Shown here in pieces: positions 12,926 to 31,680 of a DNA stretch of 64,000 nucleotides (positions are counted from its first letter, which is position 1; the number at the start of each line of letters is the position of its first letter). A program made the position numbers and the translations under genes. The notes beneath the pieces are model-generated. The model was given only the letters and a program-made list of their open reading frames with translations. It ran no database searches and had not been told where the DNA came from. Source of the stretch: Candidatus Sulfotelmatobacter sp. (lineage in GTDB: Bacteria; Acidobacteriota; Terriglobia; Terriglobales; Acidobacteriaceae); NCBI GenBank assembly GCA_049517555.1, contig JBEKRY010000001.1, forward strand, positions 700 to 64,699, in the 5' to 3' direction.

Positions 12926-13005
12926 GAGTGATCTTAACTCCGCCAACTCGGCGAACCGAAGTCAGCAAACGAGCAGCGAACAAGATAAGGACGAGGATAA
13001 ATTCA

Positions 13006-13808: not shown

Positions 13809-15161
13809 TCAAACCGGCACTCGGGGCGCGGGCGTCAGCCGTTTGCAGAATTGATAGAGGATCCACACGCTCACCCGGAATGCGCCCAGTAACAGCCCGA
13901 GAAGAAACGTAGCCACGACTCCTCGCGGTTTCGTGCGCGCGTACACAACGTTCATACTCCATGCCGGGCTGGTATATACCGTCCCCGCACTGGTTGCGCC
14001 GATGCGATTCCTGACTGGCGGCTCGTAGACGATCTTTTCGATTCCACCGTTAAAAAACTTTGCCATTTGCAAAATGCGTCTGCTGTACGACGCCCTCGCA
14101 CTGAGCGGCAACGTGCCTCGGCTGCGGTACTTCAGAATCAGGCTGGAGGCTTCCGCGGCGTGGCGCAGGGCCGCGGTGACTCCGTTGGCGGTGATGGGAT
14201 CGACCATGGCTGCAGCTTCGCCGGCAATGAGCCAGTTCGGGCCAGCTACTCCGACTTGTGCTCGGGAGCGAAAGGACGTCACGTTGGTGGGATTGAGAAC
14301 TCCCTCCCGCAGTAGCGGCTCAAACCGTGGAAACTTCATCAGTTGCTGACTGAAAATGTCTTCCATAGAAGATCCGCTTTCGCGCTTCGCTTTTATCGCT
14401 GCGCCAGTGGCGATATATCCGACGCTGATCATGTTCGGGCTGACAGGGATCTCCCAAATCCACTCGAGATATTCCGATGGCATGGGATCCATGTACAGAG
14501 TCGTCCCTTCCGGGGACTCAGAGACCGGGAAATAGTTCCACATCGCCACCTTCGTGGGGCCACTGTAAATGGCGGGAAGATTAAATTCCCGGGCCAGCAG
14601 ACACGTGGCAAAACCGGACGCGTCGATAAACCAGGGCGAAGAGAGGCGCGCACCTCCAGCCGTCCGAACTGAAGAGATATTCCTTCCATCTCTTCCATTT
14701 CTTTCGATCCCAACCACTTTGTCTCGCACCAGAGTGACGCCGCTGGCGATCGTCCTGTTGAGAAGTTCACGGTCCAGGCGAAGGCGATCCACATGCAAAG
14801 TCCGCAATTCGATATGGAAGGGCTTTCCAGCCAGCCAGGCGGAGGGAACATACTGCTCGGAGGTGCCGTCGCGCAATTTCACCGTGACATGACGTTTCCA
14901 GGTCGCCATCTGTGCGCTGATCAGGTCGTCCATGGGCAGCCCCAACGCGCTTAATAGGTCCGGAGCCGACCAATCCAATGACTCCCCAACCGGCTGGCGA
15001 ATCGCCTCTGCGGGCTCAATGCAGATGACATTGAGCCCTGCTCTCGCGAGCTGCAAAGAGGCCGCCTTCCCAGCCAAGCCGCCCCCGATCACGGTTACAT
15101 CACAATGAATCTCCAGCTTTTGGCCGGGCGCAGGTTCGGTGCTGGGCGGCAGATTGTCCAT
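13809..15161 (-). CDS. FAD-dependent oxidoreductase of the flavin-dependent halogenase-like family, with a C-terminal hydrophobic helix
   Basis: 450-aa ORF. It has the GxGxxG motif (VTVIGGGLAGKAA), PVGESL, and a WxWxIP-type motif EWIWEIPV encoded at 14445-14462. The C-terminus carries VVATFLLGLLLGAFRVSVWILYQF. Confidence 0.65.
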   Translation of the reverse strand: MDNLPPSTEPAPGQKLEIHCDVTVIGGGLAGKAASLQLARAGLNVICIEPAEAIRQPVGESLDWSAPDLLSALGLPMDDLISAQMATWKRHVTVKLRDGTSEQYVPSAWLAGKPFHIELRTLHVDRLRLDRELLNRTIASGVTLVRDKVVGIERNGRDGRNISSVRTAGGARLSSPWFIDASGFATCLLAREFNLPAIYSGPTKVAMWNYFPVSESPEGTTLYMDPMPSEYLEWIWEIPVSPNMISVGYIATGAAIKAKRESGSSMEDIFSQQLMKFPRFEPLLREGVLNPTNVTSFRSRAQVGVAGPNWLIAGEAAAMVDPITANGVTAALRHAAEASSLILKYRSRGTLPLSARASYSRRILQMAKFFNGGIEKIVYEPPVRNRIGATSAGTVYTSPAWSMNVVYARTKPRGVVATFLLGLLLGAFRVSVWILYQFCKRLTPAPRVPV

Positions 15162-15463
15162 GCTTCAAGTCATTTTGTCGATTGCGCCTTAATCCCCACG
15201 ATTAAAGGCGTTTGCGATGTCTTGGCAAAGAAACCTGCGCCCGCGTTTCGACATCGCGGGAAAGTATCATCGGCGGTCCAGGTGTCTCAATAATCGAAAT
15301 CCACTAGAACCAAGATTCCAGACATTCGTATGCCGCATTGCTCGACTACGGAGAGACGCCGGTTGGTCCCGTTGGCTAATATATTTCGATTATTGACCCA
15401 CCCTGGCTGAGATGTGATCGTGGTGACATTTTGGGTGAGTCAGGGGTTATGGGGAGGGTGGTA

Positions 15464-16063
15464 ATGGCAGTCTCGAATCCTGCGGTTCCCAACATTCATA
15501 GCGCACCAAGACCAAATGCCGGCTTTTTCGAGAAGCTGAATACGCGTTGGCATGAGCGTGCACTACAGGTTTTCATGTTTATTGTGCTCGCGCATTGGGC
15601 CGAGCACCTTGTCCAGGCTTACCAGATTTACGTTATGGGATGGCCTCGTCCGAAGGCTCTGGGCTTGCTTGGTTTGTGGTATCCCTGGCTGATCCAGACA
15701 GAAACATTGCATTACGGCTATGCTTTGGTGATGCTCATTGGCCTGTGGATCTTCCGCAAAGGCTTTACCGGACGGTCACACACCTGGTGGATGGTGGCGT
15801 TCTGGATTCAGTTCTGGCATCACATTGAACACTTTCTGCTCATCTGGCAAGCCACGACTCACCACAATTTCTGGGGAAAGCCGGTACCCTGCAGCGTCCT
15901 GCAGCTGATCTTCCCGCGGGTCGAATTGCATCTTTTCTACAACTCGATCGTGTTCATCCCGATGGTCATCGCGATGTATTACCACATGTTCCCGTCCGAA
16001 GGGGAGGGGAATCCGGCTTGCACCTGCGAGTGGGGCCGGCATGAGTTGGCGCAAGCTGCCTGA
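15464..16063 (+). CDS. Integral membrane protein of unknown function with an internally duplicated H-x-x-E-H-x5-Q motif
   Basis: ORF-track frame is 15431..16063. The ATG at 15464 follows GGGAGGG by 5 nt. The protein has four to five hydrophobic helices. AHWAEHLVQAYQ and WHHIEHFLLIWQ lie at equivalent positions in the two halves. Confidence 0.6.
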   Translation: MAVSNPAVPNIHSAPRPNAGFFEKLNTRWHERALQVFMFIVLAHWAEHLVQAYQIYVMGWPRPKALGLLGLWYPWLIQTETLHYGYALVMLIGLWIFRKGFTGRSHTWWMVAFWIQFWHHIEHFLLIWQATTHHNFWGKPVPCSVLQLIFPRVELHLFYNSIVFIPMVIAMYYHMFPSEGEGNPACTCEWGRHELAQAA

Positions 16064-16520
16064 TCACAGAGTGCGTAACCGTCTTTCGCGGCAGAAACTC
16101 GCGAGACGCCTCGCAGGTTTCGTCTGCGCTGCAACTTTATTTACGGTCGGCTGTTCCAGGCCGGTCGAACTGCCGCCTTTTGTCGAGATTGAGCACGAAA
16201 TTTCGCCTCAGCCCGCAAGGGTTGGACCCGTTACGGTCACTCTCAAGTTGGCCGATGCCACCGGCAAAGCTCTCACGGGAGCGCACATTGCGGTTGAGGC
16301 TGACATGTCGCACCCTGGGATGAACCCGCTATTCGCTGAGGCGAAAGAAGCCGAGCCGGGCCGTTACCAGGCTCACTTAGAGTTTCAGATGGCGGGTGAT
16401 TGGGTTATCCTCATCCATGTCACGCTGCCCGACGGGAAGAAATTGGAACGACAGATTGACGTGAGGGGCGTCCAACCTGGCGTTCAATCCGGCGTTCAAC
16501 CTGGCGTTCAACATAACTAG
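16041..16520 (+). CDS. FixH/YtkA-like domain lipoprotein
   Basis: 159-aa ORF with a lipoprotein signal (RRLAGFVCAATLFTVGC). The domain pattern is VTVTLKLADATGKALTGAHIAVEADMSHPGM...GRYQAHLEFQMAGDWVILIHV, typical of YtkA/FixH-like domains. It overlaps the upstream gene by 23 nt. Confidence 0.65.
   Translation: MSWRKLPDHRVRNRLSRQKLARRLAGFVCAATLFTVGCSRPVELPPFVEIEHEISPQPARVGPVTVTLKLADATGKALTGAHIAVEADMSHPGMNPLFAEAKEAEPGRYQAHLEFQMAGDWVILIHVTLPDGKKLERQIDVRGVQPGVQSGVQPGVQHN
16467..16514 (+). repeat. Four tandem 12-bp units (ggcgtYcaaYcY) encoding GVQP-GVQS-GVQP-GVQH at the C-terminus of the FixH-like lipoprotein
   Basis: Read directly: ggcgtccaacct ggcgttcaatcc ggcgttcaacct ggcgttcaacat. Confidence 0.9.
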
Positions 16521-16528
16521 GCAAGCTG

Positions 16529-17992
16529 TTGAATCCATCCTCCATTCCGGCCCTGGAAACTTCTGAATCGCTTCCGTTCGATCTGATGCGTGTACCTGGC
16601 TTGGGCCATTTGTTCCGCTGGCGTTATGCCCGCCCTCTGCTGCAGGCACCACTGCTCGTCCTCAGCCTGGTAATGATCCTGCACGGATTGTTCGGGCCAA
16701 CTCTCGCGCCAAAGAATCTAGCCACAACCCTGAGCTGGCTGCACTTTCGCGGTGTGCTGGTGCTGGTGCTATTGTGCGCGGGGAATTTTTTCTGTCTGGC
16801 CTGCCCTTTCATGCTGGTGCGTCAGGCGGCGCGACGATTCTTCACGCCTCGGTTTACTTGGCCGCGGGCCTTGCGCAATAAGTGGCTTTCGGTTGGTCTT
16901 TTTGCGTTGATCCTCTTCACTTACGAGCTGTTCGATCTGTGGTCATCGCCGTGGTGGACGGCCTGGCTGATCGTGGCCTACTTCCTCTCCGTGCTCGTGG
17001 TGGATGGGTTTTTCAAGCACGCTTCGTTCTGCAAGTTTGTTTGTCCCATCGGACAATTCAACTTTGTAGCTTCCACGCTTTCGCCGTTCGAAGTGAAGGT
17101 CCGAGAACAGGATGTTTGCACGCGCTGCCATACCAAGGATTGCATCCGCGGCAGGCGGGAACCGGTGTCGGATCTGGTAACGATTCGCGGCTGTGAACTG
17201 GCTCTGTTTTTGCCCAGCAAAGTCGGGAACATGGATTGCACGTTCTGCCTGGACTGCGTTCATGCCTGCCCACACGACAACATTGGCATCTTGAGCCGGC
17301 TGCCGGCGAGTGAATTGATGGTGGATCCAATACGATCAGGGATCGGGTACTTCTCGCGGCGGAAGGATCTGGCAGCGCTGGCAATCGTGTTCACGTTTGG
17401 AGCACTGCTGAATGCGTTTGGAATGGTCAGTCCGGTTTATGCTGTGGAGACTTGGCTCGGAACAATGTTGCATGTAAGTCACGAAGCCCCTGTGCTGGGA
17501 CTGATCTTCACATTCTTTTTGATCGTGGAGCCGGTTCTGCTGCTGGGCCTGGCTGCTTGGTTGACCCGCATATGGGCCCACAGTCCACGCGCCCTGTTGC
17601 CACTGGCGGTGCGATACACGTATGGCTTGGTTCCTCTGGGCTTCGGAATGTGGTTGGCGCACTATTGCTTTCACTTTTTAACCGGGCTCTACACGCTGAT
17701 CCCCGTCACGCAAAACGCGATCGCGAGTCTGGGCCGGCCCTTTCTGGGAGAGCCGCGTTGGACTTTGACGGGACTGCCAGCAAACGTCGTGCAAGTCGTT
17801 GAGATTGGATTCCTGGTGCTTGGATTTGCCGGCTCTCTGGTGGTGACCTATGGTCTGGCGGAAGATGACTCGCCGAATCACCCGCTGCGGGCGTTTCTTC
17901 CCTGGGCGGCGGTTTGCTTGGTTCTTTGGTGTGCATCGCTGTGGTTGATGTTTCAGCCCATGGAAATGCGCGCCATGTTGATGAGCGGATAG
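16529..17992 (+). CDS. Polytopic membrane 4Fe-4S ferredoxin-type protein (FixG/CcoG / NapH-MauN-like)
   Basis: 487-aa ORF with a TTG start per the track; the start is uncertain. Cys motifs are CLACP, CKFVCPIGQF, CTRCHTKDC and CTFCLDCVHACP (CxxCxxCxxxCP). There are multiple hydrophobic helices on both sides of the Cys-rich loop. Confidence 0.7.
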   Translation: MNPSSIPALETSESLPFDLMRVPGLGHLFRWRYARPLLQAPLLVLSLVMILHGLFGPTLAPKNLATTLSWLHFRGVLVLVLLCAGNFFCLACPFMLVRQAARRFFTPRFTWPRALRNKWLSVGLFALILFTYELFDLWSSPWWTAWLIVAYFLSVLVVDGFFKHASFCKFVCPIGQFNFVASTLSPFEVKVREQDVCTRCHTKDCIRGRREPVSDLVTIRGCELALFLPSKVGNMDCTFCLDCVHACPHDNIGILSRLPASELMVDPIRSGIGYFSRRKDLAALAIVFTFGALLNAFGMVSPVYAVETWLGTMLHVSHEAPVLGLIFTFFLIVEPVLLLGLAAWLTRIWAHSPRALLPLAVRYTYGLVPLGFGMWLAHYCFHFLTGLYTLIPVTQNAIASLGRPFLGEPRWTLTGLPANVVQVVEIGFLVLGFAGSLVVTYGLAEDDSPNHPLRAFLPWAAVCLVLWCASLWLMFQPMEMRAMLMSG

Positions 17993-18006
17993 CCGCAATT
18001 GGTTGA

Positions 18007-18615
18007 ATGACGATGCTGAATCGCCGTACACGTGCGGGAAAAGTTTCGGTTGGGCTTCTGGTTGCGCTCTTGCTGGTGTCGCATACGCCAGCCCGCGCGC
18101 ACAACGGGCCGCCGTTTCCTATTATTGAGAACAAGAAAGTTGGGCCTTGTATAGTTGCTCTTTGGACTCATCCTGACGTTGGCACCGGAGCCTTTTATGT
18201 GTTCGTGGAGCCGGAGCCGGGTGCAACGCTACCGGACGATCTGAAGATCAAGATAGGCGTTCAGCCCGTTACCGGTCGGCTGCCTGAAACATTTTATGAG
18301 GCCGAGCACGTGAAGTCGCGTGGACCGGTGCAATACAACGCTCAGGCCCAGTTCGACCGGCAGGAGTTGTGGCGTGTGCGTCTTGTGATTCGGAGTGCGC
18401 AAGGCAATGGCGAGGCGACCGCCGACGTTGAAGTAACGCCGCCCGGGTTCGGGCGGTGGGACCTTTTGTTGTATCTTTTGCCATTTCTGTTTGTGGCGTT
18501 CCTGTGGGTTCTTGGTATATCGCGCATGAAGCGCCGCAAGAACGCGCGATTGCGCGACGGAGCCGAAGCGGCAATCGCCGCGCAGACAGCCGGCCCCGAG
18601 AAAAGTTCCAATTGA
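18007..18615 (+). CDS. Secreted, C-terminally membrane-anchored protein of unknown function; the predicted mature N-terminus is His
   Basis: 202-aa ORF. The signal peptide ends ...LLVSHTPARA followed by HNGPPFPI. The C-terminal helix is WDLLLYLLPFLFVAFLWVLGI, followed by a basic tail (SRMKRRKNARLR). Confidence 0.6.
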   Translation: MTMLNRRTRAGKVSVGLLVALLLVSHTPARAHNGPPFPIIENKKVGPCIVALWTHPDVGTGAFYVFVEPEPGATLPDDLKIKIGVQPVTGRLPETFYEAEHVKSRGPVQYNAQAQFDRQELWRVRLVIRSAQGNGEATADVEVTPPGFGRWDLLLYLLPFLFVAFLWVLGISRMKRRKNARLRDGAEAAIAAQTAGPEKSSN

Positions 18616-18656
18616 CGCTGCGATTCTCTAAATGTTCTCGTGGAGGCTGGTTTCTG

Positions 18657-21600
18657 ATGTGCGTCAACTCGATGCGATGTTGCAGCCCTGCTTCCGCTCC
18701 GCGCGACAGGCGATCAGGCAGTTTTCAGCGTGCGATGTTGTCGCTTCTTCTCGGAAGCCTTGTGACGGTACTCTCGGGATGCCATTCCAGCCCCAAGCTG
18801 CCCGAGAAAGGATCGAAGGCCTATGCCGATGTGGTTTCAGCTTTCTATGTCGGGCTCGCTGCCCTCCAGGTTGGCGATGACGTTCACGCCGAGAGCAAGC
18901 TTTCGGAGCTGACCCAACTCGTACCCACGGAACCTGCCGGATGGGCGAACTGGGGCGTGCTCGCGTTGCGCCAGCGAAACTACGACCTAGCCGCGCAAAG
19001 GCTGGAGCGGGCCCGCGATCTCGCGCCGCAAAATGATCAGATTTACGATCTGCTGGGGATCCTTGAAGGCCAACGCGGCCATTCCGCGGAAGCGATTGCA
19101 GACTTACGGAAAGCCGTCGACCTCAATCCGAAGAATCTGCGCGCCGCCTATGCGCTTGCGGAAGAAATCGAACGCGAGGGGGACGCCAACAGCGAGGCTG
19201 AATTTCAGCAGGTGATCGAGAAGATTCTGGCGGCGCAGCCGGACAATCTCGCCGCGTTGCTCGAGTTGAGCCGCGTTGCCGCAAAGCGGGGCGATGCCGC
19301 CACACTCAAGTCAGCGGTAGCCGAGATCAGCGCCCGCTCCTCCGCATGGCCGCCCGAAGTGCAGCAGCAACTTGCAACCGTGCAGGCTGCGGCGGCTGGA
19401 ACGGATTTACGGGCAGCCGCCACGCGGACCACTTTTCTGCGCAACGTGCTCATGCGCGTTCCCGAGTACCGGCAGAGTCTCTCCGTCATCAAGGCGCCCG
19501 CTGGCGAAGAGGCGCGGCCCTTCACCCACTTTGTGCGAATGGAATCGCCTGTCTTTATGCCTGCCCCGGCAGACACCGCGATTCAATTCCCCGTTCAGCC
19601 AGTCGCGGATGACAACGATCATTGGAATGGGAGTCGAAGTTGGAATTGGATTGGAGCCATCCAACTGGGCAGCGCCGGCGTGCCCGTTATTGCCGTGGCC
19701 AATGGCCGCGAAGTGCATTTGTCTTTGCCCAGCGGCGCAACGCTTCCCTTTCCCGGTGGACCGTCTAACGTTCCGCCGTTGCCTGAGGGAGTTTTGCAGG
19801 TCGACTTCAACTACGATTTCAAAACCGATCTCGTGCTCGCGGGCGCGGGAGGAGTGCGTTTGTTCCGCCAGGACAGTCCGAGCGTGTTCACTGATGTAAC
19901 GACACAGACCAAGTTGCCCAAATCTGTGACCAACGCCCGCTATACGGGCGCGTGGGCAGTCGACATTGAAGCGGACGGTGATCTCGATATCGTTCTGGGC
20001 TCAAAGGATTCGCTTCCGACTGTATTGAGAAACAATGGAGACGGCACATTCTTAGCCATCCATCCTTTTGCCGGAATCACGGGCGCGGTCGGATTTGCCT
20101 GGGCTGACCTCGACGGTGACGGCAACCCCGATGCCGCCATCATTGACGGCGCGGGCCGGTTGCACGTCTTCATGAATGAGCGGCAAGGGCAGTTCCGTGA
20201 GCGTCCGCTCCCCGCAGGATTGCCGCTCGTGAAAGCAATTGCCGTCGCCGACGCGAACAATGATGGAGTTCTCGATCTCCTGGCGGTGCAGGCTGACGGA
20301 GCCATCATTCGGATTTCTGACAAGAACGAAGGAGAAAGCTGGGAGACCGCAGAGATCGCAAGAATCCCGGACCCTGCCAAAAATCTCGCGGGCGAGGTGC
20401 GACTCCACGTTGCTGACCTCGACAACAACGGAGCCCTCGATCTTTTTCTGGCTCCGACAAAGCAGGGGCCTGGTGCAGCCGGGGCTTTGATTTGGCTCGG
20501 CGATGACAAGGGCAAATTCGTGCCGCTGGACCATCCTGCAGGACCAGCTTTGGTGTTTGACGCCGGAGACTTGAAGGGCGACGGCAAGCTTGATCTGGTG
20601 GGGCTTAGCGCCGACGGAGCGCCCGTCCAAGGGATGAATCAGGGATCGAAGAATTATCACTGGCAGATCGTTCGGCCGCACGCGGTACAAGCCGTCGGCG
20701 ATCAGCGCATCAATCCATTCGGCATCGGCGGCGAAATTGAAATTCGCTCCGGCTTGCTGGTGCAGAAGCAGCCAATCACCGGACCGCAACTTCATTTCGG
20801 ATTAGGGGAACAGACCGAGGCGGAGATCGTGCAAGTAGTCTGGCCGAATGGAACGGTGCGCGCCGAGTTCGGCGTGAAAGCGGACACCGAGATCGTGACC
20901 GAGCAACGCCTGAAGGCTTCCTGTCCGTTCCTCTTCGCTTATAACGGAAAGCAGATGGAGTTCGTGAAAGACGCTGTTCCCTGGGGGTCGGCGATCGGCC
21001 TGCGTATCAATACTCTTGGTTCTGCGCAAATCGCGGCGACCGGAGAATGGTACAAGATTGGCCGCGACCAACTCGTGCCGCACGACGGCTACTACGACCT
21101 GCGCATCACGGCGGAGTTGTGGGAGGTTTATTACTACGATTATCTGGCGCTGATGGCCGTCGACCATCCGGTGGGCACGGAGATTTTTGTCGATGAACGT
21201 TTCGTAATTCCTCCGCTGAAGCTTGGCCTCACGACCGTGGCTACGCCGCACGAAATTGCGCGGGCCATCGACGACACGGGCCAGGACGTTACTGACATCG
21301 TCCGTACGCTCGACGGAAAAGCCCTTGCCAGCTTCGGGCGCGGCCAGTATCAGGGCATCACGCGCGATCATTACCTTGAAGTTGACCTCGGCGGCGACGC
21401 GCCGAGAAGCGGCCCCCTCTATCTAATCGCACAGGGATCGATTCACGACACCGAGTCGTCGGTGAACGTCGCCATCACCCAAGGCAGCCGCTGGCGGGCT
21501 CACGGGTTGAGCCTGGAAGTTCCGGATGGCCACGGTGGCTGGGTCACGGCGCAGGACAATCTGGGCTTTCCGGCGGGGCGGAAGAAAACAATTCTTTTCA

Positions 21601-22235
21601 ACCTGACCAACGTCTTTCGGCCTGGCACTCCGCGCCGCGTGCGAATCCGAACCAATCTGGAAATTTACTGGGATGCCATTCATTGGGCGCAGGGCGCGCC
21701 AGACACGCAACTGAAGACGGTGACTCTGAATCCCAGCCTGGCCGATCTGCATTATCGCGGATATTCCGTCATGCACATGCCGGGGGCTGCACGAGCGCCC
21801 GAGGTGCCCGACTACAGCCAGATCGAAGGGACCAAGCAGCGCTGGCGCGATCTGATCGGCTACTACACCCGCTATGGCGACGTGCGCGAACTTGTCGACC
21901 ACATCGACGATCGTTACGTGATTGTGAATTCAGGAGATGAACTCTCTCTGCGTTTCCCGGAGCAACCGCCTCCGCCGGCGGGCTGGGTGCGCGACTTCGT
22001 GATTGTCGGTGACGGCTGGATCAAAGACGGCGACTACAACTCCACGTTCTCGAAGACCGTGCTCCCTCTTCCGTATCACGCCAAGAATGAGTACACCACG
22101 CGGCCCGGTCGCCTCGAAGACGAATGGGTTTACCAGCAGCATCCCGACGACTGGAAAAACTATCACACGCGTTATGTCACTCCTGATGTCTTCAAGAACG
22201 CGCTAAGGGATGCAAGGGGTGAAACCGGCAAATGA
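18657..22235 (+). CDS. Lipoprotein with N-terminal TPR repeats, FG-GAP/VCBS repeats, an ASPIC/UnbV domain and a ~470-aa uncharacterised C-terminal region
   Basis: The track ORF starts at 18456 and overlaps the upstream gene. I place the start at the ATG at 18657 (GGAGG 9 nt upstream), giving ...RAMLSLLLGSLVTVLSGC (lipobox). FG-GAP-like segments include DIEADGDLDIVLG...NNGDGTF and ADLDGDGNPDAAII. The ASPIC/UnbV-like segment is NPFGIGGEIEIRSG...LHFGLGEQTEAEIVQVVWPNGT. Confidence 0.75.
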   Translation: MCVNSMRCCSPASAPRDRRSGSFQRAMLSLLLGSLVTVLSGCHSSPKLPEKGSKAYADVVSAFYVGLAALQVGDDVHAESKLSELTQLVPTEPAGWANWGVLALRQRNYDLAAQRLERARDLAPQNDQIYDLLGILEGQRGHSAEAIADLRKAVDLNPKNLRAAYALAEEIEREGDANSEAEFQQVIEKILAAQPDNLAALLELSRVAAKRGDAATLKSAVAEISARSSAWPPEVQQQLATVQAAAAGTDLRAAATRTTFLRNVLMRVPEYRQSLSVIKAPAGEEARPFTHFVRMESPVFMPAPADTAIQFPVQPVADDNDHWNGSRSWNWIGAIQLGSAGVPVIAVANGREVHLSLPSGATLPFPGGPSNVPPLPEGVLQVDFNYDFKTDLVLAGAGGVRLFRQDSPSVFTDVTTQTKLPKSVTNARYTGAWAVDIEADGDLDIVLGSKDSLPTVLRNNGDGTFLAIHPFAGITGAVGFAWADLDGDGNPDAAIIDGAGRLHVFMNERQGQFRERPLPAGLPLVKAIAVADANNDGVLDLLAVQADGAIIRISDKNEGESWETAEIARIPDPAKNLAGEVRLHVADLDNNGALDLFLAPTKQGPGAAGALIWLGDDKGKFVPLDHPAGPALVFDAGDLKGDGKLDLVGLSADGAPVQGMNQGSKNYHWQIVRPHAVQAVGDQRINPFGIGGEIEIRSGLLVQKQPITGPQLHFGLGEQTEAEIVQVVWPNGTVRAEFGVKADTEIVTEQRLKASCPFLFAYNGKQMEFVKDAVPWGSAIGLRINTLGSAQIAATGEWYKIGRDQLVPHDGYYDLRITAELWEVYYYDYLALMAVDHPVGTEIFVDERFVIPPLKLGLTTVATPHEIARAIDDTGQDVTDIVRTLDGKALASFGRGQYQGITRDHYLEVDLGGDAPRSGPLYLIAQGSIHDTESSVNVAITQGSRWRAHGLSLEVPDGHGGWVTAQDNLGFPAGRKKTILFNLTNVFRPGTPRRVRIRTNLEIYWDAIHWAQGAPDTQLKTVTLNPSLADLHYRGYSVMHMPGAARAPEVPDYSQIEGTKQRWRDLIGYYTRYGDVRELVDHIDDRYVIVNSGDELSLRFPEQPPPPAGWVRDFVIVGDGWIKDGDYNSTFSKTVLPLPYHAKNEYTTRPGRLEDEWVYQQHPDDWKNYHTRYVTPDVFKNALRDARGETGK

Positions 22236-24043
22236 CTGCCAACCGCATCGCGAGGGCCATTGTCGTTCTCTTCTTTATAGGGCTATTGGCTACTCCTTTT
22301 GTTATTAAGCGGATGACGGCGAGGCGGGAAGCCGACCGATCGAAGTTCGACGCAAAGACTGCATTGGCACGCCACGGGTTTTATCTCGAAGAGGTCTCTC
22401 AAGCGGCCGGCATCAATTTTGTCCATCAATCTCCGAAGCTTGATCCGAAATTAGATCCCATCATGCCCGAGGTTGCTTCGATGGGAGCGTCGGTGTCGAT
22501 CGTCGATTTCGATCGTGACGGCTGGCCCGACATCTACGTTACGAACAGCGCGATCGGGAGCAAGAATGCTCTCTATCGCAACCTGCATGACGGAACTTTC
22601 AAAGACGTGGCCGGTGAACTGGGCATTGCCGACGTGAACCAGCCCGGCACTGGCGTTTCGACCGGCGCGGTTTGGGGAGACTACGACAATGATGGGTATG
22701 AGGATTTGTTCCTGATCAAGTGGGGACGACCGGAACTGTTTCACAATGATCAGGGCCATGGCTTCACCCGCGTGACCGAGCAAGCTGGATTGCCGCCCTG
22801 GATCAACGCCAACACGGCCATCTGGTTCGATTACGACGGCGACGGACTTCTGGACCTTTTTGTTGGGGGCTACTATTCGGAGGACATTGATCTGTGGCAT
22901 CTGACCACGACGCGCATCATGCCCGAGAGCTTTGAATATGCCAAGAACGGCGGGCGAAAGTATTTGTTTCATAATCTCGGCAGCGGGAAATTCGAAGAAG
23001 TCAGCGCGAAAGTTGGCATTAACAGCCGACGTTGGGCCCTGGCGGCTGCCGCGGCGGATCTGCGTGGCACGGGCCATCCTGATCTGTTTGTTGCGAATGA
23101 TTATGGAGTGTCGGAGCTTTACTTCAATGACGGCAAACGGTTTCATGAGGTCGGCGAACAGACGGGCGTCGGCTTTGCCCCCAAAAGCGGCATGAATGCT
23201 GCGTTTGGCGACATCCTCAATCAAGGCAGATACTCGGTTTACGTTTCCAATATTTCGGAGGACGGCATTCTTATTCAGGGGAATAACTTGTGGGTGCCGA
23301 AGGAAGGCACTGCGGGTAACGCCGTTAAGTATCAGAATCTGGCGCGCGACTTTGGGGTGGAACTTGGAGGATGGAGTTTCGGCGCGCAGTTTGGCGATTT
23401 GAATAACGATGGAACGCTCGACCTGTATTTAACCAATGGTTACATCTCTCTCGACCGCAAGCGAAGTTACTGGTATGACTTCTCGAAAGTTGCCGGCGGG
23501 AACAGTACCATTATTGGCGATGCCAAGAATTGGCCGGCATTTGAGGGACGCAGTTTGTCGGGCTACCAAACGAAGAGAGTCTGGCTCAACGATGGCGCCG
23601 GCAGATTCGTCGATGTTGCCCAGGCCATTGGCGCTACCGATACTTATGACGGACGTTCCGTAGCGCTCGTCGATTTATGGAATCGCGGTGTGCTCGACGT
23701 GGTTGTCGCCAACCAGAATGGACCATTGCTGCTTTACAAAAATACGGTCGCGCTAGAGAACCAGTGGATCGAATTCGAACTGGAAGGAACCAGCTCAGAT
23801 CACGGCGGCAGCAACCGCAGCGCGATCGGCGCCCAGGTGACGCTGTTTTGGAATGGCCAGCAGCAGGTGCAAGAAGTTTCCGGTGGCAGCGGTTTCGCCG
23901 CGCAGAATGATCGGCGGTTGCATTTCGGTCTGGGCAGGAATGCGCAGATTGAGAAGGCGATCATTCGATGGCCATCAGGTAAGGTTCAAACTCTCGACCA
24001 ACCCGTTGCCAATCAATTACACAAGGTGAAGGAGCCCGCATGA
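22232..24043 (+). CDS. CRTAC1-family protein (FG-GAP/VCBS repeats + ASPIC/UnbV domain) with an N-terminal signal anchor
   Basis: 603-aa ORF whose start overlaps the upstream stop (ATGA). Supporting sequence: AIVVLFFIGLLATPFVI; VDFDRDGWPDIYVTN...YRNLHDGTFKDV; WGDYDNDGYEDLF; and the C-terminal segment AIGAQVTLFWNGQQQVQEVSGGSGFAAQNDRRLHFGLG...IRWPSG. Confidence 0.85.
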   Translation: MTANRIARAIVVLFFIGLLATPFVIKRMTARREADRSKFDAKTALARHGFYLEEVSQAAGINFVHQSPKLDPKLDPIMPEVASMGASVSIVDFDRDGWPDIYVTNSAIGSKNALYRNLHDGTFKDVAGELGIADVNQPGTGVSTGAVWGDYDNDGYEDLFLIKWGRPELFHNDQGHGFTRVTEQAGLPPWINANTAIWFDYDGDGLLDLFVGGYYSEDIDLWHLTTTRIMPESFEYAKNGGRKYLFHNLGSGKFEEVSAKVGINSRRWALAAAAADLRGTGHPDLFVANDYGVSELYFNDGKRFHEVGEQTGVGFAPKSGMNAAFGDILNQGRYSVYVSNISEDGILIQGNNLWVPKEGTAGNAVKYQNLARDFGVELGGWSFGAQFGDLNNDGTLDLYLTNGYISLDRKRSYWYDFSKVAGGNSTIIGDAKNWPAFEGRSLSGYQTKRVWLNDGAGRFVDVAQAIGATDTYDGRSVALVDLWNRGVLDVVVANQNGPLLLYKNTVALENQWIEFELEGTSSDHGGSNRSAIGAQVTLFWNGQQQVQEVSGGSGFAAQNDRRLHFGLGRNAQIEKAIIRWPSGKVQTLDQPVANQLHKVKEPA

Positions 24044-24918
24044 GCCAGCAGACGAGCGCGCCAGCATTTCCTCCGCAATCGCCAGCCGGGTCCCCTCAAG
24101 CGCCAACTCAGAAGACGCCTTGGTTCAGCCTCGACAACCGTTACATCGCGCCCGCTTTTATTACCTGCATTCTGCTGGCTGGTCATTTGTCGTTCGGCAT
24201 TCTCGAGAGCTATCAGAAGACGCTGCTTGCGATCGTTACAAGTATTGGACTCGAACTCGTGCTCGGGCGGATTTTCTTTCACAAATGGGTACACCCCGCC
24301 AGCGCTTACATCTCGGGGATCAGTGTCGGCATTCTGGTGCGGTCGCCGGCCTTCTGGCCGTACGCGCTGTGTAGCGCGATTTCTATCACGTCCAAGTATG
24401 TGTTGCGGGTGAAGGGCCGTCACATCTGGAATCCGTCTAACTTCGGCATTTCGGTGATGCTGTTTCTGGCTGCGGAGACCGTGGCCACGTTAAGCATCCA
24501 GTGGGGCAATTACCTTTTGCCCATGCTCGTGATCTGGGCGCTGGGATCAGTGATTATCTGGCGACTGCGGCGGTTTCACATCACGGGCATTTATGTCGCG
24601 TCGTTCATTGCCTTCGCATTCGTTCGCAGCTGGATGACCGGAAGCCCCTGGCAATCGGAGATTGCGCCGATTACCGGTCCCATGTACCAGCTCTTCATTT
24701 TCTTCATGATTACCGATCCGAAAACCACAGTGCGGTCCAAGCGAGGGCAGTGTCTGGTCGTGTTTCTAGTAGCTGTGGTGGAAATGATTCTGCGGTTAGA
24801 CCAGATCGTTTACGCACCTTTTTATGCGCTATTCGTGGTGGGTCCAACGGCCATGCTGATCGAGATCTGGCTGGATTCCCGCCACGCAAACGCTGCAAAA
24901 CTGACGGTGGCTCGGTGA
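24040..24918 (+). CDS. Stand-alone RnfD/NqrB-like polytopic membrane protein
   Basis: 292-aa ORF with an ATGA overlap with the upstream gene. It carries family-type motifs HIWNPSNFG and FFMITDPKTT (compare FNPA and FFMATDPVT in RnfD/NqrB). I see no SGAT-type flavinylation motif. Confidence 0.6.
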   Translation: MSQQTSAPAFPPQSPAGSPQAPTQKTPWFSLDNRYIAPAFITCILLAGHLSFGILESYQKTLLAIVTSIGLELVLGRIFFHKWVHPASAYISGISVGILVRSPAFWPYALCSAISITSKYVLRVKGRHIWNPSNFGISVMLFLAAETVATLSIQWGNYLLPMLVIWALGSVIIWRLRRFHITGIYVASFIAFAFVRSWMTGSPWQSEIAPITGPMYQLFIFFMITDPKTTVRSKRGQCLVVFLVAVVEMILRLDQIVYAPFYALFVVGPTAMLIEIWLDSRHANAAKLTVAR

Positions 24919-26798
24919 CGGCTGGTAAACGGGCTCCGCGATCTCAAAGGCCACTGCGCCGTGTCGTTTATTCCCTGCTGCTGGTTGCTCTGTTTATGTT
25001 GACGAGTTGCAAGCCAAAGGCATCGAGCGAGCCAAAAGCTGTTCCGGTGACTCCGGCGCAGATTCCCACGCCAGTAGCGTCTCAAGCCCAATCCGCTGCA
25101 CCCGACTCGCCCGCGAAACTTCCTCGCCCCTCCGGTCCCATTGAGTTCACGGATGTCACTGCCCAGGCAGGCATTCATTTCAAACACAACAGCGGCGCGT
25201 TCGGCAAGAAGTATCTTCCGGAGACCATGGGCAGCGGCGTTTGTTTCTTGGATTACGACAATGACGGATGGCAGGACATTCTGCTGGTCAATTCCATGGA
25301 CTGGCCGGGGCATAAATCTGGCAATTCGTTTCCCGCGCTTTATCACAACAATCGAGACGGAACGTTCACCGATGTGACGCGGCAGGCTGGTCTCGCGGTG
25401 GAGATGTATGGGCTCGGTTGCGCCATCGGCGACTATGACAACGACGGCTATGTCGACATTTACATCACCACCGTTGGGTCCAACCATCTTTTCCACAATC
25501 TGGGCAATGGCAAGTTTGCCGACGTTACCGCTAAAGCTGGAGTAGCCGATCCGGGATTCTCCGCGAGCGCGGTGTGGTTTGATTATGACAACGACGGGAA
25601 GCTGGATCTTTTCGTCGCCCACTACATCGACTGGTCCATTGAGACCGATCAATACTGTTCACTCGACAACAAGAACAAGTCGTACTGCACTCCGCAGAGG
25701 TATAAGGGCCAAAGCTCCGCGCTCTTCCACAACAAGGGCGATGGAACGTTTGAGAACGTCACGCGACGCGCCGGACTCTACGATCCCACGAGCAAATCGC
25801 TTGGGGTCGCTTTATTGGACTACGACAACGATGGCTGGCTCGATCTTTTTGTTTCCAACGATACGGAACCAAACAAGCTCTACCGCAACAATCACAACGG
25901 AACCTTCACGGATGTAGCGGTCGCGGCCGGCGTGGCTTACAGCGAAGCAGGCACGGTGCGCGCTGGGATGGGTACGGACGCGGCCGACTACGACAACTCG
26001 GGATGGCAGAGCCTGGTGATCGGCAACTTCACCAACGAGGGGATGGCGCTTTACCACAACGATGGCTCGGGGCTATTCACGGATGAAGCGCCGGCGACGG
26101 GCATTAGCAGGATATCGACCAAGTCGCTGACGTTTGGCACGTTCTTTTTTGACTACGATCTTGATGGTCTGCCCGATATTCTCGCGGTCAACGGCCACGT
26201 CTCCGACGACATCAGCGTGGTGCAGCCACAAGTTAAGTATGCCCAACCGCCGCATTTGTTCCGCAACTTAGGCAAGAACAAGTTCGAGGAGGTAACCACA
26301 AGACTGGGCTCCGCGCTGCAACGTCCGATCGTGGGCCGCGGCGCGGCCTACGCAGATTTCGACAACGACGGTGATCTGGATTTACTGATCACTGCCAACA
26401 ACGGACCAGCGCGGTTGCTGCGCAACGACAACGGCAACCAGTACGACATGCTGCGGGTGAAGACCGTGGGCACACGATCGAACCGCGATGGCATCGGCGC
26501 GAAGGTCACGGTCAAGACAAACGCGGGAACACGCCTGTTCGCCATGGTGAAAACAGGTTCAAGCTATTTATCCCAAAGCGAACTGCCGCTCACCTTCGGC
26601 TTGGGCAAACCGGGAGCAGGCAAGACGGTGAGACTGGAGGTCGTCTGGCCCAGCGGCCAGAAAGATATGATCCCAAACATCATGCCGAATCAGTTCATCA
26701 CGGTGAAAGAAGGCAAAGGTATTGTTTCGACACAGCCCATCGTGTTTTCCAAGACCGGCCCCCCGCAGTCGTCGGCGCCCGCCTCTTCGCAAAAGTGA
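24915..26798 (+). CDS. CRTAC1-family lipoprotein (FG-GAP/VCBS repeats + ASPIC/UnbV domain)
   Basis: The track ORF starts at 24501, inside the upstream gene. An in-frame GTG at 24915 overlaps the upstream TGA (GTGA) and gives VTAGKRAPRSQRPLRRVVYSLLLVALFMLTSC (lipobox). Supporting sequence: LDYDNDGWQDILLVN; GDYDNDGYVDIYI; and the C-terminal segment GIGAKVTVKTNAG...GSSYLSQSELPLTFGLG...VVWPSG. Confidence 0.8.
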   Translation: MTAGKRAPRSQRPLRRVVYSLLLVALFMLTSCKPKASSEPKAVPVTPAQIPTPVASQAQSAAPDSPAKLPRPSGPIEFTDVTAQAGIHFKHNSGAFGKKYLPETMGSGVCFLDYDNDGWQDILLVNSMDWPGHKSGNSFPALYHNNRDGTFTDVTRQAGLAVEMYGLGCAIGDYDNDGYVDIYITTVGSNHLFHNLGNGKFADVTAKAGVADPGFSASAVWFDYDNDGKLDLFVAHYIDWSIETDQYCSLDNKNKSYCTPQRYKGQSSALFHNKGDGTFENVTRRAGLYDPTSKSLGVALLDYDNDGWLDLFVSNDTEPNKLYRNNHNGTFTDVAVAAGVAYSEAGTVRAGMGTDAADYDNSGWQSLVIGNFTNEGMALYHNDGSGLFTDEAPATGISRISTKSLTFGTFFFDYDLDGLPDILAVNGHVSDDISVVQPQVKYAQPPHLFRNLGKNKFEEVTTRLGSALQRPIVGRGAAYADFDNDGDLDLLITANNGPARLLRNDNGNQYDMLRVKTVGTRSNRDGIGAKVTVKTNAGTRLFAMVKTGSSYLSQSELPLTFGLGKPGAGKTVRLEVVWPSGQKDMIPNIMPNQFITVKEGKGIVSTQPIVFSKTGPPQSSAPASSQK

Positions 26799-26984
26799 CG
26801 AGCCAACTCTTGCAACCGATTACCAATTGCGGTCTCTAGCATTTTTATACTATTGCCCCTTAGACCCTGCGCCATTAACGTCTCTAAGCGAAATTGTGAG
26901 CGTCGTTCTTGAAGCGGGAAACTTTTGGGTTTGCAAAACCTCGGATCTTGTAAAACAGGGTTCCACGTCGCCGGAGTTGGGGGA

Positions 26985-27623
26985 ATGAGAGTGCTGAAAG
27001 GCTGCTCCGAAAAAATTTCCCTGCCAGTAAAGCGCGTTGCACTCGAAGGCGTTGCCGCCCAGCCGGGAGCATCGGCCTTTCAGCTCGCCAGTCTCCTCGA
27101 ACAGTTTCATCGTGTAACAAACGACGCAAACAAGTTGGTTCTCGGCCGCGCGGCGGGCGATCTGACCAGCAGGTTGCATTCGGGTTCGTGGTCGGCGACG
27201 GAATGCCTGGACCATCTCACAAGGACGACGCTCTCATTTCTGCCGGCCATCTCACGGGCGATTGCGACCGCTCCCGAGCTCGCCACGAATCGCTCGCTCC
27301 GTACCGGAACGATCGCCTTACTCTTGATTCGTAATCTGGAACCTCCGTATCGTCTCCGCTACAAAGTTATCCCCGAACTCGTGCCGCAGAAAACGGGTTT
27401 TGAGGCTGCATGGTCGAACTTTGAGAGGTCACAATCGCAGGTCTCCGAAGGCGTCCAGGCGGCGGTCGGTTTCGCCATCGACAAGGTGCAGGTGCGGTGT
27501 CCGGTGTATGCGCGAATAAGCTACAACGTCTATGGGGCTTTTCGCATGCTGGCCGCTCATCAACGCCGCCATCTCTGGCAGATGCAGCAGATTCTTACAG
27601 CGCTCGACCGAAAACGGTCTTGA
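26985..27623 (+). CDS. DinB-family (DinB_2-like) protein
   Basis: ORF-track frame is 26925..27623; the ATG at 26985 follows GGGGGA. SWSATECLDHLTRT and the C-terminal AAHQRRHLWQMQQI are typical His-containing DinB helices. Confidence 0.6.
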   Translation: MRVLKGCSEKISLPVKRVALEGVAAQPGASAFQLASLLEQFHRVTNDANKLVLGRAAGDLTSRLHSGSWSATECLDHLTRTTLSFLPAISRAIATAPELATNRSLRTGTIALLLIRNLEPPYRLRYKVIPELVPQKTGFEAAWSNFERSQSQVSEGVQAAVGFAIDKVQVRCPVYARISYNVYGAFRMLAAHQRRHLWQMQQILTALDRKRS

Positions 27624-27651
27624 AAGGCGCACTTTACGGGCCGCACCAGTC

Positions 27652-28287: not shown

Positions 28288-28297
28288 GTGCGATCTT

Positions 28298-29617: not shown

Positions 29618-29740
29618 GGGTTGCCTCGCGGCCTCTCTAGTGTTTTTGGAGTATTGCCGCGATTGTAGGGAAGGGATTACAAGAAGCCGCTAAAGGCGAC
29701 CGCGGCAAACCAGACGAAGTGGATGTTTAAGGAGATTTTT

Positions 29741-30313: not shown

Positions 30314-30441
30314 TCTTCACCGAAAGGGCGCACGCCTTCCCGAGGGCAGGACAAAACCTGGCAAACAACCGAAGTCCAACCTCGGCGGTGGTTTCCAACC
30401 AAAATCAGTCGAAGGATAATTCTTATTTATCAGAGGAGCTT

Positions 30442-31545: not shown

Positions 31546-31680
31546 CTTTCTCACCGATGACGATAGGCGTTCTAACAGGCGGAGCGATGCCCGCCTCCAT
31601 CCCGACGAATCTATGGGATACTGTGTCGCTGCGCTGCGTGGGTTGCATCCAGTGCAACGACTTCTGAAAGGACTTTTCTT

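Follow-up and report, generated by a model that had tools for sequence, protein, structure and literature searches.

What do the eight genes at positions 15464 to 26798 of a 64,000-nucleotide (nt) stretch of Candidatus Sulfotelmatobacter sp. DNA (GenBank assembly GCA_049517555.1, contig JBEKRY010000001.1; the whole stretch is called the window here) do together, and do they form one system or two? The original prediction, made from the letters of the window, described them as an operon that joins FixG/FixH-like and RnfD/NqrB-like proteins to three CRTAC1-like proteins in an envelope electron-transfer or metal (possibly copper) system not described before. An open reading frame (ORF) check of the window reproduced exactly the eight plus-strand ORFs, g1 to g8, with their predicted coordinates (Table 1), the junctions of -23, +8, +14, +41, -4, -4, and -4 nt between them, and the ATGA/GTGA stop-start overlaps at 22232, 24040, and 24915. 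Analysis of the encoded proteins and of related loci revealed two separable groups of genes: g5 to g8 (module B), built on a protein pair known from enediyne biosynthesis, and g1 to g4 (module A), a putative metal and electron module. We tentatively favor a model in which the two modules cooperate in the cell envelope, and we place it at somewhat less than an even chance.

Table 1. Genes of the cluster and features of the region upstream of g1 (positions in the window)
Feature	Coordinates	Strand	Description	Basis or position
g1	15464-16063	+	199-aa four-helix membrane protein with internal duplication	His/Glu motifs
g2	16041-16520	+	YtkA-domain lipoprotein with lipobox Cys	PF13115
g3	16529-17992	+	Probable polytopic NapH/MauN/CcoG-type ferredoxin membrane protein	Cys motifs
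g4	18007-18615	+	Secreted protein, modeled as an eight-strand beta-sandwich, with C-terminal transmembrane anchor	His32 is the predicted mature N terminus
g5	18657-22235	+	1192-aa lipoprotein: TPR, FG-GAP_3 propeller, UnbV_ASPIC, ~470-aa C-terminal domain	Pfam
g6	22232-24043	+	UnbV (enediyne E4)-type protein with signal anchor and FG-GAP/UnbV_ASPIC propeller; orthodox partner of g7	
g7	24040-24918	+	UnbU (enediyne E5)-type membrane protein, RnfD/NqrB fold, without covalent flavin mononucleotide (FMN) site	
g8	24915-26798	+	CRTAC1-like FG-GAP/UnbV_ASPIC lipoprotein, diverged paralogue	
Conserved element TAATAT-N8-ATTATTGA	15377-15396	+	Candidate promoter/operator	5' of g1
Palindrome TGTGATCGTGGTGACA	15413-15428	+	Candidate promoter/operator	5' of g1
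Flavin adenine dinucleotide (FAD)-dependent monooxygenase/halogenase-like gene	13809-15161	-	450-aa protein with C-terminal transmembrane helix	Divergent from g1

Many homologues of g7 carry the Joint Genome Institute (JGI) name "enediyne biosynthesis protein E5," and tblastn of g7 against annotated plasmids revealed genes annotated "enediyne biosynthesis protein UnbU," with 28% identity over 78% of g7 (3e-5) and with 31 to 32% identity (1e-8). On a Streptomyces clavuligerus plasmid, UnbU (E5) is encoded together with DUF1702 (E3), a VCBS protein (E4/UnbV), a type I polyketide synthase (PKS), and a thioesterase, and the E3/E4 and E4/E5 genes overlap by 4 nt. The g6 protein is 29% identical to the S. 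clavuligerus E4 over ~540 residues (E = 6e-42) and 44 to 46% identical over its full length to the UnbV proteins of PKS-type clusters (E ~1e-146 to 1e-150). It retains the orthodox UnbV motifs NGG, GWTLA, SNI, and DYW...NWP...SLSG. The Pfam name "ASPIC and UnbV" itself refers to the UnbV family. Because of the JGI naming, the UnbU matches, the cassette context, and the alignment of g6 with E4, the products of g6 and g7, whose genes overlap by 4 nt, are identified on sequence grounds as a UnbV-UnbU (E4/E5) pair. In this respect the claim that the combination is not a described system had to be given up: the pairing is already known from the conserved five-gene enediyne cassette E3/E4/E5/E/E10 (PMC4480864, PMC5181780), and automated annotation already names some homologues E5. 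A cytoplasmic position of the g6 propeller, considered from the basic residues after its transmembrane helix, was ambiguous and was not adopted because the UnbV proteins of PKS clusters have clear lipoboxes; the UnbV/UnbU pair therefore probably acts outside the cytoplasm.

A HMMER search of 1.84 billion representative proteins revealed 2076 relatives of g7 at E <= 1e-3 and 152 at E <= 1e-30; the family has at least 8000 homologues in protein databases, or ~2076 representatives at 50% clustering. On contigs long enough to show neighbors, a UnbV protein is encoded beside each distant UnbU homologue (30 to 45% identity). The E4/UnbV-E5/UnbU arrangement was found in S. clavuligerus and at the loci L086, L088, L090, and L095, and also at L084, where the two genes are not adjacent. 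At L086 and L090 the UnbV-then-UnbU pair occurs without any other recognizable gene. At L084, at L088, and on the Serratia plasmid of L095, a DUF1702-UnbV-UnbU triad lies within type II PKS/fatty acid synthase (FAS)-like clusters. Four proteins (P0245, P0323, P0380, and P0359) have a UnbU-like N terminus fused to an FG-GAP propeller, in three of them with UnbV_ASPIC. The clusters with the triad suggest that E3/E4/E5 chemistry is used outside the classical pathways of enediyne PKSs (PKSE).

Several of these loci deserve a description of their own. Those at L084 (7283-20843; GCA_000821245.2), L088 (1204-10831), and L095 (NZ_MT039191.1) are aryl-polyene-like clusters with genes for a ketosynthase (KS), a chain length factor (CLF)-like protein, a second KS, a ketoreductase (KR), and an acyl carrier protein (ACP); the L084 cluster also contains aminotransferase, methyltransferase, and ApeI-like genes. 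On plasmid pSymA of Sinorhizobium meliloti T073 (L094, 4916-14532; NZ_CP021805.1), a run of unannotated ORFs of 355, 635, ~300, and 1911 aa looks like an enediyne-type E3-E4-E5-PKSE cassette on a rhizobial symbiosis plasmid. On the Metabacillus plasmid pB218 (L093, 8300-9687), a UnbU-like gene annotated RnfD overlaps an AhpC/TSA-redoxin gene (-4 nt), and no UnbV is present; the redoxin may be a different extracytoplasmic redox partner for the UnbU-like membrane family.

The annotation RnfD raises the question of whether g7 could act as an Rnf-like protein in the literal sense, that is, as a flavin-based ion-translocating subunit that connects a FixG/FixH-like module with the CRTAC1-like proteins. 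The predicted RnfD/NqrB likeness of g7 held for the fold: g7 matched Pfam NQR2_RnfD_RnfE (PF03116) at the threshold (27.8 bits; cut-off, 27.7), and a profile of 19 diverse UnbU-like proteins (g7 and 18 relatives) matched the solved structures of RnfD (8ahx_D, 4e-14) and NqrB (~1e-5) in the PDB. The Metabacillus overlap with a redoxin gene likewise hints at redox partners. However, the alignment of the UnbU profile with RnfD fell into two pieces, skipping RnfD residues 142 to 215. The covalently flavinylated Thr of RnfD/NqrB lies in an (S/T)GA(T/S) loop, which we take to fall in this skipped region, and the [ST]GA[ST] motif was present in 0 of the 19 UnbU-like proteins. The invariant residues of the g7 family are K119, H128, N131, P132, N134, D226, and P227. 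No other Rnf/Nqr subunit (RnfC/G/E/A/B, Nqr) was found among g1 to g8, the flanking genes, or related loci with called genes, and g3 and g2 scored under the FixG and FixH thresholds. The lack of a covalent-FMN site in g7 makes an Rnf-like role unlikely, and we give its literal form a slim chance; what g7 appears to share with RnfD/NqrB is the fold and not the cofactor site.

The remaining two genes of module B encode further propeller proteins. Pfam confirmed the predicted lipoprotein architecture of g5 as well as the CRTAC1-like nature of g6 and g8; g5, g6, and g8 each exceeded the thresholds of both FG-GAP (PF13517) and UnbV_ASPIC (PF07593). The UnbV proteins of PKS-type clusters are 29 to 31% identical to g8 and 22 to 29% identical to g5, and the alignment showed that g8 lacks the DYW...NWP...SLSG insert of true UnbV proteins. 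The C-terminal domain of g5 (20799-22235 in the window) is 60 to 95% identical across 68 loci (mean column identity, 76%), with H123, H191, H216, H427, and C42 invariant (counted from domain residue 1). These ~470 aa had no relative in Pfam, in NCBIfam, or in phmmer and profile searches of the PDB. A hidden E3/DUF1702 domain was considered for this region and discarded, as BLASTP against the DUF1702 protein of L084 showed no similarity.

In UnbV-type proteins, most invariant positions are Asp, Gly, or Asn and the others Phe, Ala, Met, Arg, or Trp, a composition expected of FG-GAP calcium loops. This composition invites a purely structural reading of module B, in which calcium-binding propellers would form matrix or surface elements as in animals, anchored by g7 and free of catalysis. 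Calcium-loop motifs dominate the invariants and no conserved catalytic-type residues accompany them; g6 is similar to human CRTAC1 (9etn_A, 2e-15), and a giant surface protein is encoded nearby upstream (6656-12925). Yet pure adhesion makes little sense in enediyne and other polyketide clusters, for which the pair is obligatory. In addition, the genes of the pair are strictly translationally coupled and sometimes fused, and module B is coupled to a redox/metal module. We regard a structural or adhesive role as very unlikely. The giant gene itself (6656-12925, plus strand) encodes a 2089-aa NHL/FG-GAP/Big_3_5 surface protein and lies shortly upstream of the cluster.

Module A opens with g1. As predicted, its product contains a duplicated HxxEH motif, found as HWAEH and HHIEH. 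Invariant in orthologues are H44xxE47H48, E80xxH83, H119H120xE122H123, and H156, and near-invariant are E154 (E154xH156) and C186xC188. The AlphaFold2 model shows four long helices (mean predicted local distance difference test [pLDDT], 79), and by the positive-inside rule the conserved residues would lie in the periplasmic half of the helix bundle. Within module A, g1 likely serves as a subunit that binds a metal or cofactor. It has at least 6164 homologues, none of them named, and matched no NCBIfam family, no Pfam family even at E <= 10, and no PDB entry in sequence/profile searches. A fold search gave no significant match either (best, E = 2), and a weak resemblance to cytochrome b (TM score, 0.41 to 0.46) was not relied on. 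Nor did g1 qualify as an FTR1/EfeU/FtrC permease, having four helices and HxxEH motifs as opposed to seven transmembrane helices with two REXXE motifs.

The predicted YtkA/FixH likeness of g2 was upheld for YtkA (PF13115; 6e-13, 49.6 bits against a cut-off of 25.9) but not for FixH (PF05751), which was not matched in the Pfam scan. The motif E-x-D-M-S-H-x-G-M-x-P (DMSHPGM in the window), followed later by M-x-GDW...H, was conserved in 23 of the 31 ORFs extracted. Members of the YtkA/CtaK family have been linked to the delivery of copper to oxidases at the external face of the membrane (PMC13344008). Since 7 of 40 module A loci lack g2, this gene is dispensable.

For g3, the prediction of a FixG/NapH-like 4Fe-4S protein was borne out by the Cys motifs, namely, CxxCP (CLACP), CxxxCP (CKFVCP), a CxxC-type cluster (CxxC...C), and CxxCxxCxxxCP (CTFCLDCVHACP), but not with regard to membership in FixG. 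The ferredoxin core aligns with PsaC and is followed by a C-terminal extension of ~230 aa with several transmembrane helices. No Pfam family exceeded its threshold, with weak Fer4 matches and no FixG_C domain, and the match to NapH PRK09477 (1.1e-6) was far under the cut-off. Genes matching g3 in plasmid records are annotated NapH, YccM, or "4Fe-4S binding protein." The g3 protein is best described as a probable NapH/CcoG/NosR/FtrD-type membrane polyferredoxin that falls under every curated family cut-off. CcoG, a polyferredoxin of this type, is a cupric reductase (PMC13344008). The sole full-length g3 homologue in the plasmid collection (26% identity, 88% coverage) is encoded on pDFI1 of Deinococcus ficus (L100, 5934-8215), where it is overlapped by the gene of a secreted, C-terminally anchored, extremely His-rich protein and has DUF305 and DUF3105 genes nearby.

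The product of g4 was predicted to be secreted, anchored by its C terminus, and to begin with His after processing, and this pattern recurred in its relatives. In 46 of 47 orthologues and in the window, an AxA signal precedes H-x-GPP(F/Y)P, and the His is the predicted mature residue 1; the sole exception (L001) has frameshift-broken genes. The C-terminal transmembrane anchor is present in all aligned orthologues. His-brace-type copper proteins (CopC, YcnI, and lytic polysaccharide monooxygenases) have His as mature residue 1, and the predicted cleavage would give g4 such a residue. The AlphaFold2 model is an eight-strand beta-sandwich (pLDDT 73; core, 80 to 90), and a Foldseek search with it returned periplasmic copper proteins as the leading matches: Helicobacter pylori CrdA (9ll2, 6e-5), followed by Tp34, FetP, and FtrA/P19. 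YcnI/DUF1775 had been expected as the nearest fold, and CrdA, Tp34, FetP, and P19 took that place. The g4 protein is a candidate copper-binding protein and a candidate link between modules A and B. A role of module A in copper handling and/or electron transfer, as proposed for the whole cluster by the original prediction, is reasonable for g1 to g4 but unproven: the g2 motif, the g4 His and fold, and the type of g3 speak for it, as do the His-rich partner of the Deinococcus g3 homologue and a locus (L163) at which module A is followed by a cytochrome c gene. At the exceptional locus L001 (2230-4680; 7.2-Mb contig, g7 88% identical), g2, g3, and g4 contain several frameshifts, and g1 and g5 to g8 are intact; long-read indel errors and decay of module A are both possible.

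To what extent the two modules belong together was examined in neighborhood surveys. A scan seeded with g7, with one genome per species, gave 80 loci with g7 identities of 67 to 92%, nearly all from Acidobacteriota (Terriglobales, Bryobacterales-type, Acidiferrales, and Pyrinomonadaceae/Blastocatellia). All eight proteins were searched by tblastn in these loci, of which 70 were testable for g5 to g8 and 66 for module A. The order g5-g6-g7-g8 was kept in 68 of the 70. Directly upstream of this block, g1, g3, and g4 were found in 40 of the 66 loci, 33 of them also with g2; module A was partial in 3 of 66 loci and relocated in 2: in L034 it lies downstream with its strand unchanged, and in L082 it is on the other strand. 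All eight genes are present in the cultured Silvibacterium bohemicum S15 (L078; NZ_LBHJ01000002.1, 136442-157236), and three look-ups of g1/g4 homologues gave the full arrangement whenever the contig was long enough. Thus, the expectation that the neighborhood is conserved beyond close relatives held for g5 to g8 and in part for module A, and the arrangement exceeds chance.

The reverse survey, a metagenome scan with a g1 alignment, also gave 80 loci. In these, g1 is followed by g3 in 48 of 51 testable loci, by g5 in 29 of 31, and by g7 in 19 of 19. Three loci depart from this order by having g1 alone, and at L163 (4373-8102) g1-g2-g3-g4 is followed directly by the gene of a 185-aa c-type cytochrome in place of g5 to g8, with a divergent flavin amine oxidase gene upstream. 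In five independent assemblies (L030, L031, L035, L040, and L043), the g4 frame runs without a stop into g5. The predicted order in these fusions is the periplasmic g4 domain, a transmembrane helix, a basic cytoplasmic loop, the former lipoprotein signal as a second transmembrane helix, and g5, which would be a coherent topology. The fusions and the g1-seeded survey support a functional coupling of g4 and g5 that is not obligatory. The eight-gene coupling that had been predicted is thereby supported in part, as a link between two separable modules.

In the model that we favor, modules A and B would cooperate at the outer face of the cytoplasmic membrane. The core of module B would consist of g7, as a subunit with an RnfD fold and no flavin site, and its translationally coupled calcium-type propeller g6; the propeller lipoproteins g5 and g8 would extend this pair, with g5 contributing a TPR arm and the 470-aa domain. 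Module A would be an accessory supply of metal, most likely copper, and/or electrons. In this supply g3 would move electrons at the membrane, g2 (through its Met/His motif) and g4 (through its N-terminal His) would hold the metal periplasmically, and g1 would give a further metal or cofactor site within the membrane. From g4, metal or electrons would pass to g5, its fusion partner in some species. The conversion of a hydrophobic polyene to the enediyne precursor requires E3/E4/E5 in enediyne and related polyketide clusters. The output of modules A and B may, by analogy, be an oxidative transformation whose hydrophobic substrate is associated with the membrane and does not come from a PKS. The gene identities, the E4/E5 homology, the absence of the FMN site, the conservation, the modularity, and the fusions were observed directly; from them we infer the identity of the metal (copper), the direction in which electrons flow, the formation of a physical complex, the chemistry, and the substrate.

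A number of observations weigh against this model. The best curated match of g3, NapH/MauN TIGR02163, is weak (1.4e-8, 34.6 bits against a cut-off of 213), and g1 has no relative of known function. The fold matches of g4 are modest (E, 6e-5 to 1e-3; target-normalized TM score, 0.55 to 0.69; 9 to 14% identity). Beta-sandwiches match promiscuously in fold searches. The g4 protein belongs to no Pfam or NCBIfam family, and sequence/profile searches of the PDB returned no relative, including any copper protein. The UnbV-type alignment contains no invariant His, Cys, or Met marking a copper site. E3/DUF1702 is present beside E4/E5 in all polyketide contexts examined and absent at the g1-g8 cluster. 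In addition, E4 and E5 have been treated only as conserved cassette genes whose biochemical roles are not established (PMC4480864, PMC5181780), and a literature search on UnbU/UnbV and SgcE4/E5 found no mechanistic paper; an acetylenase role has been proposed for CalU15 (PMC8341276), on which the model does not draw. Finally, 21 of 66 genomes have no module A within 10 kb of module B; these include the complete chromosome OZ240688.1 and L004, in which g7 is 92% identical and unrelated minus-strand genes precede g5. With module B alone in these 21 genomes, module A is therefore not obligatory for it; no alternative conserved gene was found upstream of g5 at the 21 loci.

The last of these observations would also be expected if the cluster consisted of two unrelated neighbors, namely, self-contained metal handling or uptake genes g1 to g4 (FtrABCD- or CcoG/CcoH-like) and an independent unit g5 to g8, kept adjacent by shared ancestry in Terriglobia. 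The widest junction of the cluster (+41 nt) separates g4 from g5, and the arrangement with a cytochrome at L163, from which it follows that module A can serve another partner, fits such independence, as do the three loci with g1 alone. The same applies to the parts that parallel FtrABCD (a P19-like g4, the polyferredoxin g3, and the duplicated motif of g1) and to an Alginate_exp outer-membrane gene that recurs upstream of g1. Two unrelated neighbors would not, however, be expected to fuse in frame in five assemblies, to stay near each other even when rearranged (L034 and L082), or to show the continuation into g5 that was found in 29 of 31 g1-seeded loci; moreover, g1, with no Pfam match and with HxxEH and not REXXE, is not an FTR1 permease. 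We consider this explanation somewhat unlikely. The Alginate_exp-type beta-barrel gene was found directly upstream of g1 at L001 (97-1533), L098 (4791-6362), and L141 (8309-9886); the counterpart position in the window (12808-13605) holds a different gene, for an OMP_b-brl protein.

The homology of g6 and g7 to E4/E5, in the same arrangement, and the occurrence of UnbV/UnbU in type I and type II PKS clusters of Streptomyces, Sinorhizobium, Serratia, and others could also mean that the cluster is part of a remnant or dispersed polyyne- or enediyne-type pathway, in which g6 and g7 act on a polyene from a PKS or FAS whose genes lie elsewhere in the genome, and neighboring FAD enzymes halogenate it. 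Cryptic iodination of enediyne intermediates is known and provides a model for such halogenation, and Gui et al. reportedly described iodinated polyynes as products of the cassette in Nat Chem Biol in 2024. Tryptophan halogenase/QhpG-like FAD genes adjoin the cluster in ~18 loci. Against this, tblastn searches of the 64-kb window and of 80 acidobacterial loci returned no KS or DUF1702 homologue, and PKSE and thioesterase homologues are likewise missing there; for PKS and thioesterase, Pfam scans of g1 to g8 and of the flanks 3507-13605, 13809-15161, and 26925-33378 were negative, the rest of the window being covered by the KS/DUF1702 tblastn. Further, g6 and g7 keep 67 to 92% identity in the related loci and are near-universal in Terriglobia and Blastocatellia. 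Such high and near-universal conservation is typical of a housekeeping function and not of a patchy biosynthetic cluster. The FAD genes occur in a minority of loci (5 of 48 g1-seeded loci). A dispersed pathway of this kind is highly improbable.

The FAD gene of the window (Table 1) bears on this question. Its product matched Pfam Trp_halogenase (8e-17) and Lycopene_cycl (6e-14), and among NCBIfam families QhpG (3.5e-30), GoxB, CmlS, and LodB led, all far under their cut-offs. QhpG, GoxB, and LodB are protein-modifying Trp hydroxylases, and CmlS is a halogenase. Homologues with 53 to 84% identity lie upstream or downstream of the cluster in ~11 genome loci and in the five g1-seeded loci just mentioned, and the gene is a possible accessory outside the core. 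Together with the NapH/MauN-like g3, the FAD enzyme gives a hint of the maturation of a protein-derived quinone cofactor, or of halogenation. A different set of three genes is convergent to g8 at L066 (12686-16552, minus strand) and also at L037, L048, L058, L071, L073, and L081. This trio encodes a 536-aa Trp_halogenase-like FAD protein, a protein with a weak radical-SAM match, and an Asn_synthase-like protein, and occurs in at least seven genomes, with or without module A.

Taken further, the model that we favor would make UnbV/UnbU a general and widespread extracytoplasmic membrane oxidoreductase whose acidobacterial form is matured or fed by the copper-electron module A. If this were true, the enediyne proteins E4/E5 would be metal-dependent oxidases acting on membrane-dissolved polyenes, and Terriglobia would apply UnbV/UnbU chemistry to an endogenous membrane lipid or hydrocarbon without a PKS. 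This extended form is quite unlikely to hold as a whole.

The signals around the genes are in keeping with a single transcription unit, as had been predicted. The tight packing of g1 to g8 is compatible with their co-transcription. Terminator-like sites within the cluster were no commoner than in shuffled sequence, a promoter scan likewise remained at chance level, and an Rfam scan returned no riboswitch, small RNA, or other family match. The ATG of g1 at 15464 is preceded by a GGAGGG Shine-Dalgarno sequence, and orthologues share this start position. Upstream of it, the first element occurs in the form TA(A/G)TA(T/C)-N8-(A/T)(C/T)TATTGA in 27 of 39 orthologous upstream regions, and a CRP-type palindrome, TGTGATCGTGGTCACA (<=2 mismatches), occurs in 10 of 39, compared with 0.1% of random 140-nt windows. 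These elements are candidates for a promoter, an operator, or a hairpin in the 5' untranslated region. A 27-nt inverted repeat (15281-15307/15376-15402) was rejected, since its pairing is not kept in other loci and only its right half lies within the conserved element. Readings of the region as a Fur-box-like or MerR-type operator did not hold up either.

Two further features of the flanks were observed. Six loci without module A have a divergent g5-like paralogue upstream of g5 (e.g., L038, 573-4310). Downstream of g8, the window contains a DinB_2 gene (26925-27623, plus strand); in L012, L015, and L018, homologues of this gene (63 to 64% identical) occur on the other strand, upstream of g1.

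These results show a strongly conserved UnbV/UnbU pair in a large share of soil Acidobacteriota without a PKS. It comes with two additional paralogues, with a novel 470-aa domain, and, in most lineages, with a putative copper/electron module to which it is wired and sometimes fused. To our knowledge, no enediyne gene cluster lacks E4 (UnbV) or E5 (UnbU), and the present cluster offers a PKS-free genetic system for the study of their function, for example, in the cultured S. bohemicum S15. It also suggests a hypothesis for the cofactor, in which copper would be provided via the N-terminal His of g4. Two unannotated families with thousands of members emerged, those of g1 (HxxEH protein) and of g4 (His-1 beta-sandwich), and a recurrent misannotation, the naming of UnbU-like proteins as RnfD, can be corrected. 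A literature search found no description of a PKS-free and E3-free acidobacterial block with three propeller paralogues, nor of the g5 C-terminal domain, the g1 and g4 families, the g4-g5 fusion, or the YtkA/polyferredoxin association.

Comparison with known systems places module B closest to the enediyne cassette. With E4/E5 it shares sequence (29% identity and E = 6e-42 for g6; 28 to 32% identity for g7), gene order, the same 4-nt overlap, and the combination of an E4-type protein with a signal peptide or lipobox and a polytopic E5-type protein. Unlike the cassette, the window and the 80 related loci contain no PKSE, thioesterase, or E3/DUF1702, and the cluster has two extra propeller paralogues, one with TPR and the novel 470-aa domain. 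The acidobacterial block is usually preceded by a metal/redox module, and it is near-universal in Acidobacteriota, whereas the cassette is patchy. The type II PKS/FAS-like clusters (L084, L088, and L095) encode the closest nonacidobacterial UnbV (44 to 46% identical to g6) and UnbU (35 to 40% identical to g7) proteins, but the KS, CLF, KR, ACP, and tailoring enzymes found there have no counterpart in the window. With RnfD/NqrB (PF03116; 8ahx_D, 7xk3_B), g7 shares the membrane fold and the motifs H-x-(F/W)-N-P and (F)F-M-x-T-D-P; it differs in the deleted FMN-Thr loop, in the missing [ST]GA[ST] motif and partner subunits, and in its length of ~290 aa, compared to 320 to 415 aa.

Module A combines features of several systems. 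Like CcoG/FixG, NapH/MauN, NosR, and FtrD, g3 has membrane-embedded CxxCP/CxxxCP motifs and a two-cluster ferredoxin core, and as in CcoG/FixG with CcoH/FixH, its gene adjoins that of a YtkA-fold periplasmic protein. It differs from these types in its score (34.6 bits versus 213), in the missing FixG_C domain, and in the extra polytopic C-terminal extension of ~230 aa; in addition, g2 is a YtkA and not a FixH protein, and no cbb3 oxidase, nap, nos, or mau genes lie nearby. The FtrABCD system consists of a P19-type copper protein, a small periplasmic protein, a duplicated-motif permease, and the membrane polyferredoxin FtrD (PMC11966278, PMC7415376). This system and P19-FetMP, which carry out copper-dependent ferrous-iron uptake, are paralleled by g4 (P19/FetP-like by fold), g2 (small and periplasmic), g1 (duplicated acidic/His motif), and g3 (polyferredoxin). 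However, module A shows no sequence homology to FtrA, FtrB, or FtrC, g1 has four transmembrane helices with HxxEH in comparison to the seven-helix FTR1 permease with REXXE, and g4 is membrane anchored and starts with His. Among extracytoplasmic copper chaperones with an N-terminal His or a YtkA domain (CopC, YcnI, CtaK/YtkA, PCuAC, and CrdA), to none of which g4 has detectable sequence similarity, g2 shares the YtkA domain and the g4 model is closest to CrdA. The layout of g4, with a signal peptide, a predicted beta-sandwich starting at His, and a C-terminal transmembrane anchor, is that of YcnI.

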